Source: a phage
DNA: 45,885 nt
Direction: 5' to 3' (one strand)
Assembly: GCA_021146325.1 (NCBI GenBank)
Contig: GCA_021146325.1_4321.1
Shown here: piece after piece, positions 1,285 to 42,455 of the stretch
Numbering within the stretch: the stretch's first letter is position 1
Layout of the letters: every line of letters starts with the position of its first letter
Made by a program: the position numbers and the translations under genes
The notes under the pieces: model-generated
Seen by the model: the letters and a program-made list of their open reading frames with translations, nothing else
Told to the model about the DNA's origin: nothing
Database searches by the model: none

Positions 1285-2250
1285 TAGAAGTTCTTGATAC
1301 TGCTTACTTACCCACTCAGGAATCATCAAATCTTGCTCTGTAATTCCATTACTGTATCCAGGCCACTCATCAAGTTCCTTGCACTGCTTGTAAACAGCCA
1401 GAGCCTCTAAATATTGTAAGCGCCCAATGCGAAGCTGCTCATCTGTAAGTGTGTAGCACATAGGTAAGTAGGGCTCTGTTTTCTCCTGAGCCAGAAGTCG
1501 AACCACAACCTTACGCTTTTCGTTGAATGCTTTAACAAACAAATCGCGCTGAAGTGCCATCTTACACAGGTAACCATGGTCATAAGCTGACTTACCAAAT
1601 CCTCTAGGGCTTGCGTCTGCTGTTGTTTTATAGTCAGTAATGTAAACCACTCCATTAACAACATCCACGTGGTCAAGCCGAACCTTAACGCCGCAGCCGA
1701 GAATCTCACCAAAGATTGACAGCTCTTTCTGTGCTATTGGTGAATTAATTACCGCATCGTAAGCCGGAATATTGGTCAGAACTTCTCGCATTGCGATTAC
1801 CTTGTCGTAATCTTTAGCACTAACCAGCTCCTTGCCACTAATTAACGCCTCAGCGCTCTCCTGCTGCTCAATTAACCATTTAACCGGCCAATCCTCGCCA
1901 GACTTATACATCATCTCCACAAGCTCGTTATAACCCTTCCCTGACGTGCCGGAAACGCCAACTTTTTTAAGCGCTGCCGATAAAGCTGTTTGGCTAGTAA
2001 TCAATCCTTCCACTTCGTCAAAGTCAGTAGCTCGCATGTAAGTGGAATCGAACACTTCACGTTCTAGCATCATCGTATGTCCCAAAGTGCCAAACTTTAG
2101 TGCTGCACTTGAGTTGCTGCGCTGCTTAAATTTCCATTTTGCTGGAGAAGTAGCAAGAATCTCAGCCAGCGAAGAGCCAGAGATATGGTCTTTCTCTTCG
2201 TGATAGGATTCATTTGTTAGCTCGTCGTTCGTATAAACTTTAAATGTCAT
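1279..2250 (-). CDS. PD-(D/E)XK family exonuclease (RecB/Cas4-like), recombination partner of ERF
   Basis: 323-aa ORF with VYITDYKTT D-x-K nuclease motif; sits in the exo-SSAP-SSB module. Confidence 0.65.
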   Translation of the reverse strand: MTFKVYTNDELTNESYHEEKDHISGSSLAEILATSPAKWKFKQRSNSSAALKFGTLGHTMMLEREVFDSTYMRATDFDEVEGLITSQTALSAALKKVGVSGTSGKGYNELVEMMYKSGEDWPVKWLIEQQESAEALISGKELVSAKDYDKVIAMREVLTNIPAYDAVINSPIAQKELSIFGEILGCGVKVRLDHVDVVNGVVYITDYKTTADASPRGFGKSAYDHGYLCKMALQRDLFVKAFNEKRKVVVRLLAQEKTEPYLPMCYTLTDEQLRIGRLQYLEALAVYKQCKELDEWPGYSNGITEQDLMIPEWVSKQYQELLK

Positions 2251-2253
2251 GGC

Positions 2254-2448
2254 TCAATCCTTAATTTTAACAATCTTAACAGCTTTCAAATCTTCCTCAG
2301 TGAAATATCCGGTCAGAATAGATTTTGCCTCTTTCTTGCTATCGAATCGGTCCGCTTCAGATTTGTGAACTGTATATCCAGCGGGGCCACCAAAGTAGCA
2401 ATCGCCGAACAGTGCGTTGTTTTTCTCTTTAATAATGAAGTATGGCAT
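2254..2448 (-). CDS. hypothetical protein
   Basis: 64-aa ORF; GAGAGA-rich leader upstream. Confidence 0.45.
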   Translation of the reverse strand: MPYFIIKEKNNALFGDCYFGGPAGYTVHKSEADRFDSKKEAKSILTGYFTEEDLKAVKIVKIKD

Positions 2449-2584
2449 TTCTCTATCTCTCTATTGTTGCGTGCTTTCGATTAGTTAATGATGCCGTACG
2501 CACAACGCATAGTCCAATTGGTATCACCTATTAATTAATCAAGTATACGCGTATAATTTTGTAACTACGTGTAGACATTGGCAT

Positions 2585-2880
2585 GAGTTACGTTTTTAGC
2601 CACTTAAGCCAAGCTATAGCTCAATGTAAATAGTGAGTATACCGTGTATACCGATTTTAGCGGAGGGTGCATAGGTATAGGTGCTGCGCAATACTGTATA
2701 AAATCACATGGTATAAAAATTATAAGCGGAACACTCAAGAACAGTAGTTACATGATATACAAGATATACATATATAATAATAATAATAAGAGTAAAAGGT
2801 TGATATATATAGATATTATAATGTAACTATGGCGTAAACTGGCGTAACTGGGCGTATACGATTTCCAGCGGATGCATATG
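2585..2880. repeat. AT-rich non-coding element A, homologous to element B at 28650..28935
   Basis: palindrome AGCTATAGCT at 2612..2621, (ATA)n core, near-identical 62-bp block 2766..2827 matching 28815..28879. Confidence 0.8.
2831..2860. repeat. three tandem 10-bp iteron-like repeats GGCGTAAACT / GGCGTAACTG / GGCGTATACG
   Basis: perfectly phased direct repeats read from sequence. Confidence 0.7.
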
Positions 2881-2912
2881 GTATACATGGAGTTACATTG
2901 GTTACGCGTAAA

Positions 2913-2958
2913 CAATAGCACGAATAGCTAAAACTAATACGCAAAACCCTGTATAGTT
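2913..2958 (+). promoter_or_regulatory. promoter cassette copy (IR TAGCACGAATAGCTA, 22 bp, ATAGTT) upstream of the methyltransferase gene
   Basis: IR core 2916..2930. Confidence 0.5.
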
Positions 2959-2989
2959 GGTCACACAAAAAACGAGAGAGGATTTCAAA

Positions 2990-3679
2990 ATGGTTATTTG
3001 GTCTTTATTTGATGGTTCAGGGCTGGCTGTGAAAGATTGGGCTGAGGCTTGTCACGAGTGCTACTGTTTCAACTTTGATGAGTCTGACCACGGTAGTTAC
3101 GGGGATTTAAATGCAAAATTTGAACATGAGAACATCACCTACGTTAATGCCTGGATAGATGGCAACTTCGACTTTGATGTGAAGCCTGATATCATTTTAG
3201 CGTTCCCGCCGTGTACGGATTTAGCCGTGAGCGGGTCAAGGCACTTTGAGCGAAAGCGACTGGTTAACCATAACTTCCAGATTGAAGCTGCGGAAACATG
3301 TAAAGTTGCTTTTAACTTGGCTAATAAGTACGAAGTCACATACATGATTGAGAATCCAATCAGCGTACTGTCATCACTCTGGAGAAAGCCTAATAAGACT
3401 TTCCACCCATATGAATACGGAGGCTATTTGCCGGAAGATGATTTACACCCGTTTTTTAGCGACCTAATAAAGCCAAAAGACGCATATCCCAAGAAGACAT
3501 GCATTTGGTATGGCAATGGGTTTAAATGGCCAGAGGCGATTCCTGTGGACGTTAACGATGGATTCTCTGACCAATACAAGAAGCTTGGTGGGAAGAGTAA
3601 GAAGACAAAGGTAATTCGCAGTCTAACTCCTCGCGGTTTTGCAAAAGCAGTCTTCATAGCAAATAGCACGAATAGATAA
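2990..3679 (+). CDS. DNA (cytosine-5) methyltransferase, short orphan type
   Basis: motif I LFDGSG, motif IV FPPCTDLAVSG, motif VI-like ENP, C-terminal LTPRGFAKA; ATG at 2990 has RBS GAGAGG (the ORF track began at TTG 2957). Confidence 0.7.
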   Translation: MVIWSLFDGSGLAVKDWAEACHECYCFNFDESDHGSYGDLNAKFEHENITYVNAWIDGNFDFDVKPDIILAFPPCTDLAVSGSRHFERKRLVNHNFQIEAAETCKVAFNLANKYEVTYMIENPISVLSSLWRKPNKTFHPYEYGGYLPEDDLHPFFSDLIKPKDAYPKKTCIWYGNGFKWPEAIPVDVNDGFSDQYKKLGGKSKKTKVIRSLTPRGFAKAVFIANSTNR

Positions 3680-3706
3680 AGACAAATCCCAAGGATGAGA
3701 TATCAT
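3661..3706 (+). promoter_or_regulatory. promoter cassette copy (IR TAGCACGAATAGATA, 22 bp, TATCAT, CATTGAAACGAAA) overlapping the methyltransferase 3' end
   Basis: IR core 3664..3678; motif supplies codons NSTNR and the stop. Confidence 0.6.
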
Positions 3707-3717
3707 TACTCCATTGA

Positions 3718-3977
<260 letters not shown>

Positions 3978-3978
<1 letters not shown>

Positions 3979-4913
3979 TGGCTCAGGGTATCTATATAGA
4001 CCTTAATGACGGAAGGAATCCAATGACAATTACCTCAGGGATGAGGGCGTTAAGCTTCGCTGGAAACTTTAACGTTAATAGTGGTGGCTTTAGTAAGACA
4101 TTCTCAATTAAGGGAAATGAAGGTGCATCACGTTTTTTAATTCCTAATAATGGTGCCTTCAGCTTCGAGCTTGACAGGGGTGTTGAGCTTTATTATATAA
4201 GTGGATTTTCATCAACACCTACATCTGGGACAATCTCAATAGGTTCAGTGAATGGATATTCTGACAGGGTCACGTCATTTTCAGGGACTGTTGTTGAGGT
4301 CTTGAGGGCATCAAGCGGCCATGGCATATACGTTGCTGATAGTAGTGATTTTGCATCAATAACAACTGCTGACAGGTTGCTAGTATGCAAGTACTCTAAA
4401 AGGGTAACTTTTACAGGTTCATTCAATCTCCCTATTTATGGAATACCGTTCGGTAAGTGGGATAATGGTGGAGTTTCAGTTGAGTACAACGGAAGCAACC
4501 AGCTTATTTGCACAAACATAAACACAGTAAATACTGGGAACACTCCTGGAACTGTTACACTTGACTTGCTAATATTTCAGTTGGTTACACCAACGCCTGG
4601 GCCTGGCATAAACATTTTCAACTCTAACAATGTTTGCACATTCTCAACATTGACAAGACCATTGGTTGTGTCTGGATTTATAAGTCTGTCAGGAAGCAAT
4701 CAATACATAGGTAGTTCATACTTCCCAATACTTAGATGTGGGTTTAACACAAGGGCGATACGTGCTTACAAGGAGTTGCGAAATAAGGGAATTGTTATGT
4801 CCGGTGGATACGTTAGATCTGGTACTGGATCAAGGATTTTGAGATACGTTATTGGTAATAGACCAGATGTAACCATATCAACTCCATTGCCATACTTGCC
4901 TGATATGTATTAA
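3978..4913 (+). CDS. hypothetical Gly/Ser/Thr-rich protein of unknown function
   Basis: 312-aa ORF from ATG 3978 (RBS AAGGAG); opposite strand to the tail module. Confidence 0.55.
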
Positions 4914-25527: not shown

Positions 25528-25603
25528 TGGTGTTCCGCACTGGACTCGAACCAGTAACTAAGACTTAGGAGGTCTTTGCGTTATCCTGTTACGCCAGCAG
25601 AAC
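25528..25603 (-). tRNA. tRNA-Arg (anticodon CCU)
   Basis: 76-nt cloverleaf folded by hand: 7-bp acceptor stem, D-arm GCGT/ACGC, anticodon loop CUCCUAA, T-arm ACTGG-TTCGAGT-CCAGT, 3' ACCA. Confidence 0.8.
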
Positions 25604-37805: not shown

Positions 37806-38219
37806 TCTTATCATCTCTGCGAATGCCGCAAGAAAACCCTCTCTTCCATAAGCCACCGCTGCGAAACCGCCTGATTCACTTACGCTTTTTAGGAATGACT
37901 TTTGCTCATTGCTAACTGGGCTTGCTTGCGTTTTACCAGCCCTCTTTAACTCTATGGCGCCAAATGGATAACCGCCACGCAATGACTCAGGTATCAGAAA
38001 TAAGCAGTCTGACACACCTTTGAGAAGCCCCTTGGCTTGGTCTTTTCTTGCTTGACCAATGCTCTTTTTATTTTCGTTAATCGTGTGCCAGTAAACAATC
38101 TGCGGATAGTTGTATTTCACCCAATCAGAGCAGAAGATTTGTTCATCGTCTTCCTTTGGGCATGACTTCACCGGTCCGCCATAGAACTCGAGGTAATCAC
38201 CTTTGTCTGTGATTTTCAT
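37800..38219 (-). CDS. VRR-NUC domain nuclease
   Basis: SDCLFL...AIELK PD-(D/E)xK pattern; immediately after the helicase gene. Confidence 0.55.
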   Translation of the reverse strand: MKITDKGDYLEFYGGPVKSCPKEDDEQIFCSDWVKYNYPQIVYWHTINENKKSIGQARKDQAKGLLKGVSDCLFLIPESLRGGYPFGAIELKRAGKTQASPVSNEQKSFLKSVSESGGFAAVAYGREGFLAAFAEMIRK

Positions 38220-38220
38220 A

Positions 38221-39930
38221 TCAATCCTCCATCGTAAATGATTTGTTGGCGATAATATCTTGAGACTTCTGGTTTTTACGGTGTGTGATTCTCAATGGGG
38301 CACGGAATAGATGTGCATTTGTCATAATCATTCTAGCATTACGCAATCTGCCAATTCTGAATGCCTCAGTCCTGTTATCGATGTGTGTTGAGCAGAAAGC
38401 CTTCCATTTAACAGAGCAAACGCGATGGTCTGATTCAGGGAAGAATGTTTCATAAGCTCGGAATCTGTCACCACTGTGAGCCATAACCTCATATGAAGCA
38501 ATAATCCCTGACTGGTTCTTTGTTAACCCAATCTTGAAGTCATAAACTCGCAACCAGTCCCCCTTACGATACATTTTTCCTGATAACTTAGCATTCGGGT
38601 CTATGAGCATCTCACCACAGCATCTGCAATTCTTAGCTGCAATATCATTCTTCTCACCGCATCCTTTCTTGATGATAGCTTTGGTCTGTGGGTCCGCTAT
38701 ATCTTCACACAGTCTAAACTGAAAGAAGTGCTCGCAACGCTTACCGTCAATTACATTATTACAACGCCGTGCGAACGGAGAGTTCTCATAAGAACATGCC
38801 GGGCATACCCTAGGTTCATCACCTCCTTTCCTTGATGACTTAAACTTCTGGTCCTGAACTTCTTCTATAATTGGGTCAAAGTAAAGCTCTGCCATATCGT
38901 CAAGCGTTCCGGCGAAATCGAGAACAACATGGTCTTCTTTTACCATCCCTGAATCCTTGTGTTTTTTCTTAAGAATTCGCATACCACGACCAAGCAACTG
39001 AATGAGTAGAGTAATGCTACCAACCTTCCTCAGGATAATGCTTGTATCCCACGGGGGGCAGTTTACGCCAGTTGTGAGGCAACCAATCTGAAATATGAAC
39101 TTATATTCTCCGTTAGCTGCCTTCTCAAGTATCTCTCTACGCTTCTTCTCACCAGTGGAGTTGGTAACTATCGCCCAAGTAACACCTTCTGGAAGTGCGG
39201 CTGCCGCCTCCTCGCAATGCTGTTTGCCAGCGCAAGTTACCAATGCAGCATTCCTTGTTTCCATAAACTTAGCAGCAAATCCCATTATCTTTTGTGTCAT
39301 CGTTTGGTTTTCGTGAATCTTTGCAGCCATCGCATCCATTTCTTTCTTGCTGAAGTCCTTAACCCCATCACTTCCATCAGGAGTGAACTCACTAAGGTCG
39401 TAGCCCAAATCACCAACTTCACCGTAGACAGTAGGAACAACGAACCCCAAGTCAACAAGGTAGCTGGTTGGCACTTGCATTACAGTTTTGCGCCAGAATC
39501 CACGGACATTTGGGTTACTAACTACAATGTGGTCGTTGTTACGGTACGGGCTACCAGTTAACCCAAAGATACGAAGTTCGCGACCGTACTTCTCCTTGCA
39601 TCGACGCTTCATTTCGGTAATGATTAACGTGTATTGCGCGCGACCAGTGCCAAGAAGCCCGGTATTCACACCATCCTTAAAGACCATCTCACCCTTCTTC
39701 GTGCTCATCTGCTCGAATGTTTCCTCATTCTCTTCAGCTTCTACGATATCCATATGGTCCACCATGTGGCAATTATGTGCCACGACCCCGTCAGCAATGA
39801 AATTATGGTGCTCAGGCATCTCTATATCCCAAACAAGTTCCTTGCCAATGGGTGAGATGTCTTTAATTTTGCTTGATTTTGTATTCCACGCCATTTTCCA
39901 TGTGCTTACTAATTCTCTTAAAAAACTCAT
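38221..39930 (-). CDS. SF2 helicase C-terminal gene: C-intein (53 aa) plus C-extein
   Basis: own ATG 39930 with RBS GAGGT; intein block G HNFIADGVVAHN then Cys; C-extein has helicase-like motifs GLTGSP and QLLGRGMR and zinc-finger-like Cys clusters. Confidence 0.75.
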   Translation of the reverse strand: MSFLRELVSTWKMAWNTKSSKIKDISPIGKELVWDIEMPEHHNFIADGVVAHNCHMVDHMDIVEAEENEETFEQMSTKKGEMVFKDGVNTGLLGTGRAQYTLIITEMKRRCKEKYGRELRIFGLTGSPYRNNDHIVVSNPNVRGFWRKTVMQVPTSYLVDLGFVVPTVYGEVGDLGYDLSEFTPDGSDGVKDFSKKEMDAMAAKIHENQTMTQKIMGFAAKFMETRNAALVTCAGKQHCEEAAAALPEGVTWAIVTNSTGEKKRREILEKAANGEYKFIFQIGCLTTGVNCPPWDTSIILRKVGSITLLIQLLGRGMRILKKKHKDSGMVKEDHVVLDFAGTLDDMAELYFDPIIEEVQDQKFKSSRKGGDEPRVCPACSYENSPFARRCNNVIDGKRCEHFFQFRLCEDIADPQTKAIIKKGCGEKNDIAAKNCRCCGEMLIDPNAKLSGKMYRKGDWLRVYDFKIGLTKNQSGIIASYEVMAHSGDRFRAYETFFPESDHRVCSVKWKAFCSTHIDNRTEAFRIGRLRNARMIMTNAHLFRAPLRITHRKNQKSQDIIANKSFTMED

Positions 39931-40910
39931 CTTGTGCCGACCTCGTTGTTATTGATACTGAGTAAAGCTCTCTCTTTTTCTTGCCGCCAATATAGCTTCT
40001 AACCTTAACTCCGTCATTAGCAATAAATGCTATTAGCGCATCAGCTACTGATTGAACTTCACGCCTGCTAAATGATTCGGTGTGGATTTCTACAACCCTC
40101 TTCCCTGAGCTTACAGTGCAATGACCATCATCACCAAAGTAAGCAGCCCAACCAACTGGATCAAGCTCTCTGCATATCTTTCCAATATCGTAACCATCCT
40201 TAGAATTTCCGTACTTATCAGCATATGAATCCAGAACTTTCGTACATGATGTTGATACGCAAAACCAGTTGTCGCCAAATCCAGGGTTTTTCTTCTCCCT
40301 GTATCTAGGGTTTAGTTTTGCAAACCTTTCAACCTTGCTTAGTGCGTGCTCCTTATTTCCAATATTCCAAGATGGCCTATGCGTTCCTTTTCTGTATTTT
40401 TAATCAAGCAACCATCACCAGCCATTGCCGCAAGAATGTTTTGATGTAAAAAGTCATCAACCTCCATTGATGGGTTGACGGTTGAATTATGATGCCCCGT
40501 TCTGTAATCCAAATAGAAATCGAAAGGGTTCTTAAGAAGTACGCCTAACCCCTTGCTTGAATGCGGCATAACTTTTTCACCACAGCCACACTTGCACGCA
40601 GGAGCTTTTTCGTAAATTTGTCCTGCGAGCCGTCTAGCGACAGATTCATCCCAATACAAAGTTTTCCCGCTCCGACCCAGCAGCCGTTCGAATAAAGTTT
40701 GTGTGTACTCGTGCATTTTATTTCCTCTCCGCTTTCTAATTTAATTGATGATACATGTCTTACACCATTAGTAAAAACTCTTTTTGGCTTATGATAGAAG
40801 TAATCACCAGTGCTTTCGTTTATGCATTTTATTTTATGATTGATAAGGTCTTCGCTATCAATCCTCATCATCCCTGAATCGGTGGTTATCATCGTGTCTC
40901 CAGTTAAGCA
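39772..40910 (-). mobile_element. split intein in helicase motif II: N-intein 40548..40910, endonuclease-like remnants, C-intein 39772..39930
   Basis: blocks A (CLTGDTMI), B (IKCTSTHKLY) and G (HNFIADGVVAHN-C); N-intein ends in a stop after 121 residues; intein DNA is 1139 bp, not a multiple of 3. Confidence 0.7.
39863..40740 (-). pseudogene. homing-endonuclease-like remnant split over two reading frames between the intein halves
   Basis: frame 1 ORF 40339..40716 (Cys cluster CKCGCG; ...AMAGDG...), frame 2 open 39863..40399 without a start codon (...IAFIANDG...); family not assignable by eye. Confidence 0.4.
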
Positions 40911-41354
40911 CTCATCTATCGCGATAACAGCAGGAGCATAGTCACCAAGCCCCTTAAACAAGCCGTTAGCAGCCGTTCCCTCACTAGCCACTATGGTTGG
41001 ATAGTAAACTGATTTAACGTTAAGGCCAGCGCAATAGACGCTATTACGGATGCCGAAATTACGAAGTTCCTCTGCGTTCTGGCTGATAATCTCTGACTGG
41101 CGAGATAGGACCATGTAAGGAAGGCCAAGCTGTTCCATTCGTTTCCCAATCATGGCGAGAATAATCGTCTTGCCAGCCGAAACCGATAGGTCTGCTATGA
41201 ATGGCGCTTCGTACTTGCCAATAGCCTTTCCGATTGCGTCAAATGTCACGCACTGGAATGGGTATGGTGTGATTTCTCCGAACTGATAATCATTTTGAAT
41301 CTGCTTGATTTTATCTTGGTCAAAGTTTGCTACTAAGCGTTCTACTGGAAGCAT
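40545..41354 (-). CDS. SF2 helicase N-terminal gene: N-extein (Walker A SVSAGKT ... IAIDE) plus N-intein
   Basis: 269-aa ORF; the extein junction would rebuild IAIDE-CHMV, a DECH box. Confidence 0.75.
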   Translation of the reverse strand: MLPVERLVANFDQDKIKQIQNDYQFGEITPYPFQCVTFDAIGKAIGKYEAPFIADLSVSAGKTIILAMIGKRMEQLGLPYMVLSRQSEIISQNAEELRNFGIRNSVYCAGLNVKSVYYPTIVASEGTAANGLFKGLGDYAPAVIAIDECLTGDTMITTDSGMMRIDSEDLINHKIKCINESTGDYFYHKPKRVFTNGVRHVSSIKLESGEEIKCTSTHKLYSNGCWVGAGKLCIGMNLSLDGSQDKFTKKLLRASVAVVKKLCRIQARG

Positions 41355-41394
41355 TTTAAATATCCTGATAGTTCTTTAGTTCGTTGCATTGATG

Positions 41395-41440
41395 TATAAT
41401 AACAGCCATAGAACCCATTGTTTAACAAAAAGTGCTATTG
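41395..41440 (-). promoter_or_regulatory. promoter cassette copy (IR TAGCACTTTTTGTTA, 22 bp, ATTATA) driving the helicase gene
   Basis: IR core 41423..41437, only 14 bp from the divergent HTH gene start. Confidence 0.5.
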
Positions 41441-41450
41441 AGGTAATGAG

Positions 41451-41924
41451 ATGTGTGAAATTGACAAGCGAACTATTAACGGCAATAACGGGACCGTCCG
41501 CACGCAAGACAAGAAGCAACGCAAGCGACCTTCAGGCTACTACGTATTGAAAGATGAAGTAAAGGCTGGTCTACGCGCGCGTCTGGAAATGATTCTTGAT
41601 TTCTACGGCACGAAAGCCAATATCGCCAAGCAGTTAAATGTATCTCACCAGACTGTAGAACAATGGTTTAATCGCGGGATGATTTCGGCTCGAGGGGCTC
41701 AGAGAGCGCATAATGCGTACAAGCGAAATAAGGAAGGGTTCCGAGCTACATTCTGCCGACCAGACCTGCAATTCGACGGTAACGGAAAGCCGCTAACACT
41801 TCGATGCAAGAAACGCCATATGCTTCGCGTAGTTACCGAGGCAGAACTAGCAATAAAACCACCCTGTCGACCGTGGCGCAAGAATAAGATTGCTAACGAA
41901 GCAGCACGAAAAGCTAAAGGGTAA
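41451..41924 (+). CDS. Cro/YdaS-like HTH DNA-binding protein, putative transcription regulator
   Basis: HTH GTKANIAKQLNVSHQTVEQWFNRG; basic C-terminal half. Confidence 0.55.
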   Translation: MCEIDKRTINGNNGTVRTQDKKQRKRPSGYYVLKDEVKAGLRARLEMILDFYGTKANIAKQLNVSHQTVEQWFNRGMISARGAQRAHNAYKRNKEGFRATFCRPDLQFDGNGKPLTLRCKKRHMLRVVTEAELAIKPPCRPWRKNKIANEAARKAKG

Positions 41925-41975: not shown

Positions 41976-42455
41976 ATGAACTGGCATGATTATTTTTACT
42001 ATGTAGATGGCAAATTGCATTGGAAGATTAGCACTGCAAGACGTGTTAAGGTTGGCGATGAGTGCAACTCACTATCTACATCTGGCTATTACAAAGTGTC
42101 TGTTAATGGCTTTAGGACTTATGTACATAGAGTTGTGTGGGAGATGTTTAATGGATAACTTCAAAATGGCGACTACATTGATCATATAAACCATAACAAA
42201 TTAGATAACAGAATAGAAAACCTAAGAGTAACAACAAATCAAGGTAACTCAAGAAATTGCAAGCTTAGCGTTTTATCAACAACTGGTTATTGTGGAGTGG
42301 CAAAGCTAAATCACGGAAAATTTAAGGCTCACATCACGGTTGACGGCAAGCAGCTACACCTTGGTAACTTCGATACTCCAGAACGGGCGTATAAAGTAAG
42401 AATTGAAGCAGAGAGAAAATACAACTTTCACGAAAATAACGGGTTAAGCAAATGA
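41976..42455 (+). pseudogene. HNH homing endonuclease with AP2-like DNA-binding domain, interrupted by in-frame TAA at 42156..42158
   Basis: ...VHRVVWEMFNG [TAA] LQNGDYIDHINHNKLDNRIENLRVTTNQ...GYCGVAKLNHGKFKAHITVDGKQLHLGNFDTPERAY; same frame before and after the stop. Confidence 0.6.

Follow-up and report, generated by a model that had tools for sequence, protein, structure and literature searches.

The window analysed here is a 45,885-bp phage sequence (GenBank assembly GCA_021146325.1), a T1-like siphophage genome of lytic type (Drexlerviridae, Braunvirinae) assembled alongside an Escherichia coli isolate. Between positions 38221 and 41354 a RadD-like helicase of superfamily 2 (SF2) is encoded as two separate minus-strand genes, each carrying one half of an intein, and a homing endonuclease gene of the same strand lies between the halves and overlaps both; coordinates below refer to the minus strand unless marked otherwise. 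Gene 1 (40545..41354, 269 aa) encodes 148 helicase residues ending in ..AVIAIDE, followed by a 121-residue N-intein and a stop codon (40545..40547). Gene 2 (38221..39930, 569 aa) encodes a 53-residue C-intein ending in ..HNFIADGVVAHN, then Cys and 515 helicase residues; it starts at the ATG at 39930, with GAGG 11–14 nt upstream. The two genes, their motifs and the separate ribosome binding site and start codon of gene 2 had been pointed out in an initial annotation made without database searches, and were borne out by the list of open reading frames (ORFs) and by alignments. The products are HBM2054248.1 (gene 1) and HBM2054247.1 (gene 2), with locus tags LUK65_003757 and LUK65_003756 in an E. 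coli third-party annotation (TPA) assembly of which the window is one entire contig, and N genes at least 90% identical to gene 1 were present in at least 10 other assemblies. Across 38000..41500 the window shares 95% identity with Escherichia phages ES and AN_ECEAS. The helicase flanks alone were matched by 45 other records and, among the matches listed, approximately 1.14 kb is missing.

The N-extein (40911..41354) comprises helicase residues 1–148, from Walker A (SVSAGKT) through motif II to ..IAIDE, and was delimited from the ORF list, the RadD-like match and the alignment, free of gaps, between the predicted spliced product and the CY1 helicase (664 aa). The C-extein (38221..39771) comprises the +1 Cys (39769..39771), the remainder of helicase residues 149–664 (CHMV.., Helicase_C and zinc ribbons) and the stop codon, and was assigned from matches to Helicase_C (E 2.2e-9) and to RadD-like proteins (E 1e-44). 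With the intein removed, a 664-aa protein is obtained that aligns without gaps to 664-aa intein-free helicases (84% identity to CY1, 88% to ACG-M12), and the predicted splice junction restores a DECH box, AIDE/CHMV (..AVIAIDE/CHMVDHM.., the slash marking the insertion point; junction peptide ..AVIAIDECHMVDHM..), as had been proposed. The possibility that the intein had forced a change of the +1 residue from Ala to Cys was considered, CY1 having DEAH at this site, and was rejected because DECH is found in 13 of the 13 intein-free 664-aa proteins read from the 90% cluster; the intein therefore lies before a pre-existing Cys.

The N-intein (121 codons, 40548..40910) begins CLTGDTMI, continues through IKCTSTHKLY and reaches ..GMNLSLDG; it consists of a core of approximately 96 aa (40623..40910; Cys1, block B CTSTH, ..LSLDGS) and a 25-aa tail (40548..40622). 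The C-intein (53 codons, 39772..39930) consists of a 20-aa head (MSFLRELVSTWKMAWNTKSS) and a core formed by blocks F and G (..VWDIEMPEHHNFIADGVVAHN). Both halves scored above the NCBIfam cut-offs, the N-intein with TIGR01445 intein_Nterm (33.2 bits, cut-off 24.5) and the C-intein with TIGR01443 intein_Cterm (26.9 bits, cut-off 15.6), in keeping with the split intein at motif II (DE/CH) that had been suggested for this site. A profile built from the joined halves of nine lineages aligned, over positions 2–139, with residues 3–137 of the engineered Spl DnaX mini-intein (7cfv, E 1.9e-25), and also matched engineered DnaB mini-inteins (Ssp DnaB 1mi8, E 1.2e-17; 4o1r, E 1.4e-16). The match to inteins is thus, judged from such profiles, far beyond chance, and the joined halves are predicted to form a complete HINT domain. 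In block A, Cys1 follows the N-extein directly (IAIDE/CLTGD) and is invariant in the nine lineages; block B (CTSTH), block F (VWDIEMPEHHNF) and block G (AHN/C) are all present. C1, T67, H70, D121, H138, N139 and C+1 (C140) are invariant in the same lineages, between which identity of the joined halves falls to 58%. The locus has the sequence features of a class-1 intein (N-terminal nucleophile, T-x-x-H, blocks F and G, a +1 Cys and a complete HINT domain) and those of a naturally split one (a stop after the N-intein, a separate start before the C-intein, and separate ORFs).

The endonuclease gene between the intein halves

The region between the intein halves is covered in ES and AN_ECEAS by one ORF of 284 aa, whose counterpart in the window occupies 39863..40716 and is offset from the helicase frame by -1 (+2). 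The gene matched Pfam LAGLIDADG_2 (29.2 bits, cut-off 25), with the first LAGLIDADG motif at ~40405..40440 (ILAAMAGDGCL) and the second at ~40121..40153 (GWAAYFGDDGH); G100-D101-G102 and G195-D196-D197-G198 are invariant across the endonuclease family. The best PDB matches of the family profile were I-WcaI and I-SceI (E 3.8e-5). An AlphaFold2 model of the homologue P0007 (predicted local distance difference test, pLDDT, 82 overall and > 84 across the core) matched I-WcaI and I-SceI in Foldseek searches with E 4e-10 and a template modelling (TM) score of 0.72–0.73, and matched the intein-borne LAGLIDADG domains of PI-SceI, TliVMA and PI-PfuI at only ~1e-5. The modelled protein is a two-motif LAGLIDADG enzyme of the I-SceI type with acidic catalytic residues and the alpha-beta-beta-alpha-beta-beta-alpha fold. 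All 20 endonuclease homologues found are free-standing (167–294 aa). A conserved CxCGCG motif (CKCGCG, CLCGCG or CDCGCG; endonuclease residues 41–46, ~40579..40596 in the endonuclease frame) lies within a region of approximately 90 aa that precedes the first LAGLIDADG helix, and the motif is without a match in I-SceI or I-WcaI; model confidence in this N-terminal region was low to moderate (block means 46–74).

Over 3134 nt of alignment to ES and AN_ECEAS the sole insertion or deletion is the loss of one A from a run of five (A5 to A4, 40392..40395), at ~40392. Because of this 1-nt deletion the endonuclease reading frame ends after 125 aa (40339..40716), its remainder continuing in the next frame, and the product is truncated after the first LAGLIDADG motif. 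The two overlapping partial frames with endonuclease features that had been noted in the middle region do carry such features, and are accounted for by this deletion as fragments of one gene. The same deletion explains why the intein DNA (39772..40910) measures 1139 bp, not a multiple of 3, in place of 1140 bp: the halves are out of frame here, as had been stated, and the difference is peculiar to this genome. Shortly after the deletion come two derived changes at family-conserved positions, L115P (40374) and M119I (40361), and these suggest that the frameshift is real rather than a base-calling error and that inactivation of the endonuclease was very recent. The decay previously proposed for the endonuclease holds to the extent of this one frameshift and two substitutions, but not as extensive decay; every relative examined has an intact gene, and as judged from these comparisons the endonuclease is broken in this genome alone, with the split intein and helicase intact. 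The post-deletion site (40391..40397, minus-strand GAAAAGG) reads GAA AAG G, and speculatively a -1 slip of tRNA-Lys from AAG to AAA could restore the endonuclease frame, so that trace amounts of full-length enzyme are conceivable.

Conservation, overlapping frames and selection

The same three-gene arrangement and the same frame relations were found in 14 further lineages, in all of which the endonuclease gene is intact; these comprise ES/AN_ECEAS, the Pectobacterium phage Ymer group (five phages) and metagenomic contigs L006, L007, L009–L014, L016 and L017, so that cultured phages are among the carriers of an intact cassette. The order of helicase half, free-standing homing endonuclease and helicase half that had been recognised as a fractured gene is thereby repeated throughout the set, and the locus is a real, conserved fractured gene. 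Identity among lineages falls to 41% for the N-intein and ~42% for the endonuclease; the Ymer group is 42% identical to the window in the endonuclease and 56% in the N-intein. The cassette is 1140–1155 bp long in relatives, and a multiple of 3 wherever measured. In every relative lineage one frame is common to the N and C genes and the endonuclease occupies the +2 (-1) frame, and across the cassette the helicase frame is closed by 7–14 stop codons (ten intact lineages counted; 10 stops in ES), so that the intein is split. In relatives the N and C genes are therefore separated by stop codons, not by a difference in frame. A full-sensitivity HMMER search with the N-intein recovered approximately 24 clusters (50% identity) of N genes encoding 236–313 aa, in each of which the match, tail included, ends at the C-terminus, and the first contiguous inteins ranked only below these. 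A profile search with the joined intein at E <= 1e-8 returned proteins of the N-gene type only and no contiguous relative. By these comparisons the arrangement is a conserved one and not a product of decay.

The intein is split by the endonuclease gene: the N gene ends within the 5' region of that gene, and the C gene starts within its 3' end. The endonuclease ORF shares 172 nt with gene 1 and 68 nt with gene 2 in the window, and in relatives 166–184 nt with the N gene and 68–95 nt with the C gene. The endonuclease ATG (40716) lies within intein block B (xxA TGC ACx), and the Cys codon that completes this ATG is always preceded by a codon ending in A (AAA, ACA or AGA). A Shine-Dalgarno-like GGAGAGG (40724..40730, within the N-intein codons for S-G-E-E) is located 7 nt upstream of this ATG; this or a close variant (GGGGAGG, GGTGAGG) is found at that spacing in 10 of the 11 sequences listed, the exception being L010, with GGAGAT only, 8 nt upstream.

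Selection was assessed as pairwise nucleotide diversity at codon positions 1/2/3 in eight lineages. Normal coding patterns were obtained for the extein in the helicase frame (.39/.28/.63), the N-intein before the overlap in the N frame (.27/.25/.48), the C-intein core in the C frame (.27/.17/.60) and the endonuclease body in its own frame (.39/.33/.60). In the N-intein core under the overlap the N frame dominates (.23/.28/.41). In the N-gene tail the endonuclease frame is the one under selection (N frame.25/.40/.33; endonuclease frame.33/.25/.40), so that the tail is endonuclease sequence read out of its own frame. All positions are constrained in the 3' overlap, a case of true dual coding (C frame,.19/.26/.25). 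The exteins, the two intein cores and the body of the endonuclease are thus under purifying selection, with dual constraint in the 3' overlap, and the first ~30 endonuclease codons are, on the same reading, overprinted on the intein.

An internal Met (MPHSS), used as the endonuclease start in the ES annotation and by gene callers, would reduce the overlap with the N gene to 25 nt. It was rejected as an unlikely start; the conserved CxCGCG motif lies upstream of it in sequence selected in the endonuclease frame, and the Met is missing in L007, L010, L011, L016 and L017. In the public annotation of ES (L001 4047..4856, 3364..4071 and 1722..3254) the N gene is called a minor tail protein, the endonuclease a hypothetical protein, and the C gene, with a late start, a putative single-stranded DNA binding protein; that of AN_ECEAS (L002 1722..3395) has no entry for the endonuclease. 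The split-intein arrangement was thus missed by the public annotations of these phages.

Mobility, origin and proposed mechanism

Between the window and ES, nucleotide identity is 99–100% from ~41000 to 38960, a tract that includes the cassette and approximately 800 bp of the 3' extein, versus 85–89% in the flanks and 85–87% in the outer helicase. The tract is not intrinsically invariant, since against CY1 the same stretch is only 82–91% identical. Cassette and extein similarities also disagree between lineages, and in both directions: L012 and L014 have a cassette identity of 0.85 with exteins at 0.50–0.57, and the window and L012 have a cassette identity of 0.78 with N-exteins at 0.87. The high-identity tract and the discordant identities, which are what homing with co-conversion would give, indicate that the cassette is mobile.

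The closest contiguous relatives of the splicing domain are cyanobacterial DnaX inteins (BLASTP E 8e-31 to P0088). Those of P0088, P0094, P0096, P0110 and P0122 are inserted at ..IIDE/CHML.., and the phage helicase site is ..AIDE/CHMV.., which suggests a possible switch of host gene between DnaX and helicase through the shared Walker B motif. In the three DnaX proteins checked (P0088, P0094 and P0110) no LAGLIDADG domain was detected by Pfam. The endonuclease fold is nearer to I-WcaI and I-SceI than to the intein-borne LAGLIDADG domains, so that entry of a free-standing or intron-type gene into a mini-intein, the route in the model of Dassa et al., is favoured over break-up of an intein with an in-frame endonuclease; the direction of change is one that we infer.

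The scheme that best fits these observations is as follows. A class-1 intein is situated between the Glu and Cys of the DE/CH box (motif II, Walker B) of the SF2 RadD-like helicase, with an I-SceI-type LAGLIDADG gene at the loop where inteins usually carry their endonuclease, on the same strand and in the -1 frame. The three genes would be co-transcribed and translated separately; the 269-aa and 569-aa products would then associate through their intein halves and trans-splice, freeing a helicase of 664 aa in which the DECH box is rebuilt. The endonuclease would cut cassette-free helicase alleles of co-infecting phages, and repair would copy the whole cassette together with flanking extein sequence. 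Candidate cleavage sites in cassette-free alleles are ATCGCTATAGACGAG/TGCCACATGGTGGAT in ACG-M12 and ..GATGAG/GCACACATGG.. in CY1.

Alternatives and comparison with known systems

The locus is very likely a mobile fractured gene that functions as a trans-splicing helicase. Trans-splicing is deduced from the invariant catalytic residues and from purifying selection, and a peptide bond between the helicase halves is accordingly predicted. The halves might instead assemble without covalent joining, the intein halves serving as a dimerisation module for a two-chain helicase in the manner of the Aeh1 NrdA split by mobE, and there is a documented ribonucleotide reductase whose fragments assemble by way of interaction domains of mobile-element origin (PMC3045599). 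Docking alone would not, however, need Cys1, Asn or Cys+1, and all residues of the splicing chemistry are invariant in lineages as divergent as those compared above, while the wobble-dominated variation of both intein cores points to selection on the protein; a purely non-covalent helicase is considered unlikely.

The alternatives that invoke a contiguous gene are less probable still. A continuous gene could be expressed by recoding (a -1 frameshift, then a +1 shift back) or by removal of a group I intron, and the frame relations invite this, with the endonuclease offset by -1 from the N gene and a single frame common to the N and C genes; I-SceI-type genes are also typically intron-borne. The only heptamer for programmed frameshifting in the overlap, G_GGA_AAA, is present in 6 of 11 lineages but missing in the other 5, and an ATG and Shine-Dalgarno-like sequence belonging to the C gene itself are conserved. 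An intron of group I or II as carrier of the I-SceI-type gene was likewise rejected, as Rfam gave zero matches of any kind in 39500..41200 at E <= 1, and the endonuclease ORF fills nearly the whole interval between the intein cores, leaving no non-coding room for a group I intron core. Taken together these points make a contiguous precursor of either sort very improbable. That the split is a sequencing or assembly artefact, or a conventional intein with an in-frame LAGLIDADG domain that was recently broken, would agree with a cassette whose length is not a multiple of 3 and whose sole indel falls in a homopolymer. Restoring the A, however, leaves the helicase frame closed, as it is in ES and the other lineages; the endonuclease and helicase frames differ in all 14 independently sampled lineages; a contiguous relative appeared neither in the profile search nor among the top 24 clusters; and the substitutions adjoining the deletion argue that even the frameshift is real. 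An artefact or a freshly broken intein is accordingly regarded as extremely improbable.

Several points weigh against the fractured, trans-splicing helicase. Trans-splicing and endonuclease activity are both predictions from sequence, and the target of the endonuclease could be either an intein-less helicase allele or an endonuclease-less mini-intein. The endonuclease start is deduced, its first ~30 codons showing the selection pattern of the N-intein. The C-gene start is uncertain in at least one lineage, the distant L016, in which the open stretch before the C-intein (~4100..4230) has no ATG and ..RTWRLGWNTK.. replaces the ..TWKMAWNTK.. of other lineages; to judge from this stretch, the L016 C gene must have a non-ATG start or some other means of expression. 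The halves bear unusual extensions, the 25-aa tail and the 20-aa head, and a scan for promoters and terminators was uninformative, returning no more sites than in shuffled sequence.

Among known systems the nearest are the fractured genes of Dassa et al. 2009 (PMC2677866), in which split inteins flank a free-standing endonuclease gene (gp41-1, NrdJ-1 and IMPDH-1 loci of the Global Ocean Sampling, GOS, metagenomes). In those loci the endonuclease is GIY-YIG or Vsr-like, a 27–51 nt non-coding spacer lies upstream of it, and it overlaps the downstream gene by 6–69 bp; LAGLIDADG is mentioned 0 times in the paper. The present locus shares with them the one-strand order of enzyme N-part with N-intein, endonuclease gene, and C-intein with enzyme C-part, a DNA-metabolism enzyme of phage type as host, the break at the endonuclease-insertion site, and an endonuclease 3' end overlapping the C-intein start. 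It differs from them in its I-SceI-like LAGLIDADG endonuclease, in having in place of the spacer an overlap with the N gene and a conserved ATG in block B, and in that the examples include cultured enterobacterial phages and not metagenome reads alone. With a LAGLIDADG endonuclease that overlaps both flanks, the locus is a variant of the 2009 kind of fractured gene. Inteins of actinobacteriophages with out-of-frame or antisense endonuclease genes were described by Gosselin, Arsenault and Gogarten (2025, bioRxiv 10.1101/2025.01.02.630785), who proposed an origin by invasion of the intein by a free-standing endonuclease gene and continued horizontal transfer, and noted that annotation pipelines miss such elements. 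Like these, the present endonuclease is read in a frame other than that of the splicing domain; unlike the present locus, those inteins are contiguous with an open read-through, where the helicase frame here is closed by stops, and their sense-strand out-of-frame enzyme is endonuclease VII-like, the LAGLIDADG cases being antisense.

The DnaX inteins, including that of Spl DnaX (7cfv), have an identical insertion context after the Walker B Asp-Glu (IDE/CHM), but are contiguous, have as host an AAA+ clamp-loader subunit (tau/gamma of DNA polymerase III) rather than an SF2 helicase, and are ~32–39% identical to the present intein. I-SceI and I-WcaI (PDB 1r7m and 6x1j) are alike in having two LAGLIDADG motifs and conserved acidic residues, and gave the best profile and fold matches; they reside in mitochondrial group I introns, whereas the predicted enzyme lies inside an intein gene and has the additional ~90-aa N-terminal region with CxCGCG. 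The Npu and Ssp DnaE inteins are likewise naturally split and of class 1, with Cys1 and Cys+1, and DnaE was weakly matched by the joined-halves profile. The fragment sizes are presumably comparable to those of the DnaE halves. DnaE halves are encoded at separate loci with no endonuclease gene between (Dassa et al., PMC2677866). The arrangement goes unmentioned in the paper on the genus of Ymer, and literature searches on split inteins with LAGLIDADG, phage helicases, Drexlerviridae and Ymer found no earlier description among the papers accessible, which is not proof of absence.

It is quite possible, though somewhat short of an even prospect, that the cassette is an undescribed, widespread and still-mobile module of enterobacterial phages. 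In this proposal the I-SceI-type LAGLIDADG gene is overprinted on both split-intein halves (start codon and Shine-Dalgarno sequence in block B, stop codon in the C-intein gene), the locus would be the first fractured gene of LAGLIDADG type and the first split intein in culturable coliphages, and its splicing domain would descend from the DnaX inteins, having jumped from one P-loop nucleoside triphosphatase (NTPase) to another with the same Walker B context, IDE/CHM. Few split inteins occur naturally, and those that serve as the fastest tools at present (gp41-1 and NrdJ-1) come from fractured genes known only from metagenome reads. If the proposal is true, the phages would provide a new source of trans-splicing parts and a genetically tractable system for the model in which invasion by an endonuclease gene creates split inteins, of which this would be a concrete, conserved case with dual-coding overlaps at both junctions. 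Since the host phages grow on E. coli and Pectobacterium, trans-splicing, the endonuclease target, homing with co-conversion and the cost of splitting an essential-type gene can be tested by crosses and mutagenesis. The DnaX link at an identical IDE/CHM site also suggests how inteins change host genes.

Elsewhere in the genome, another homing-endonuclease gene, of 159 codons and scoring 63.7 bits against HNH_3 if its stop codon is read through, is located on the plus strand at 41976..42455, between a Cro-like regulator and a primase, where ES and AN_ECEAS have only ~58 bp. It contains one in-frame TAA (42156..42158) within the HNH motif, so that, with the frameshifted LAGLIDADG gene, both endonuclease genes of this genome are broken. 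The only tRNA gene in the 45,885-bp stretch is a tRNA-Arg (CCT) at 25528..25603 (minus strand).

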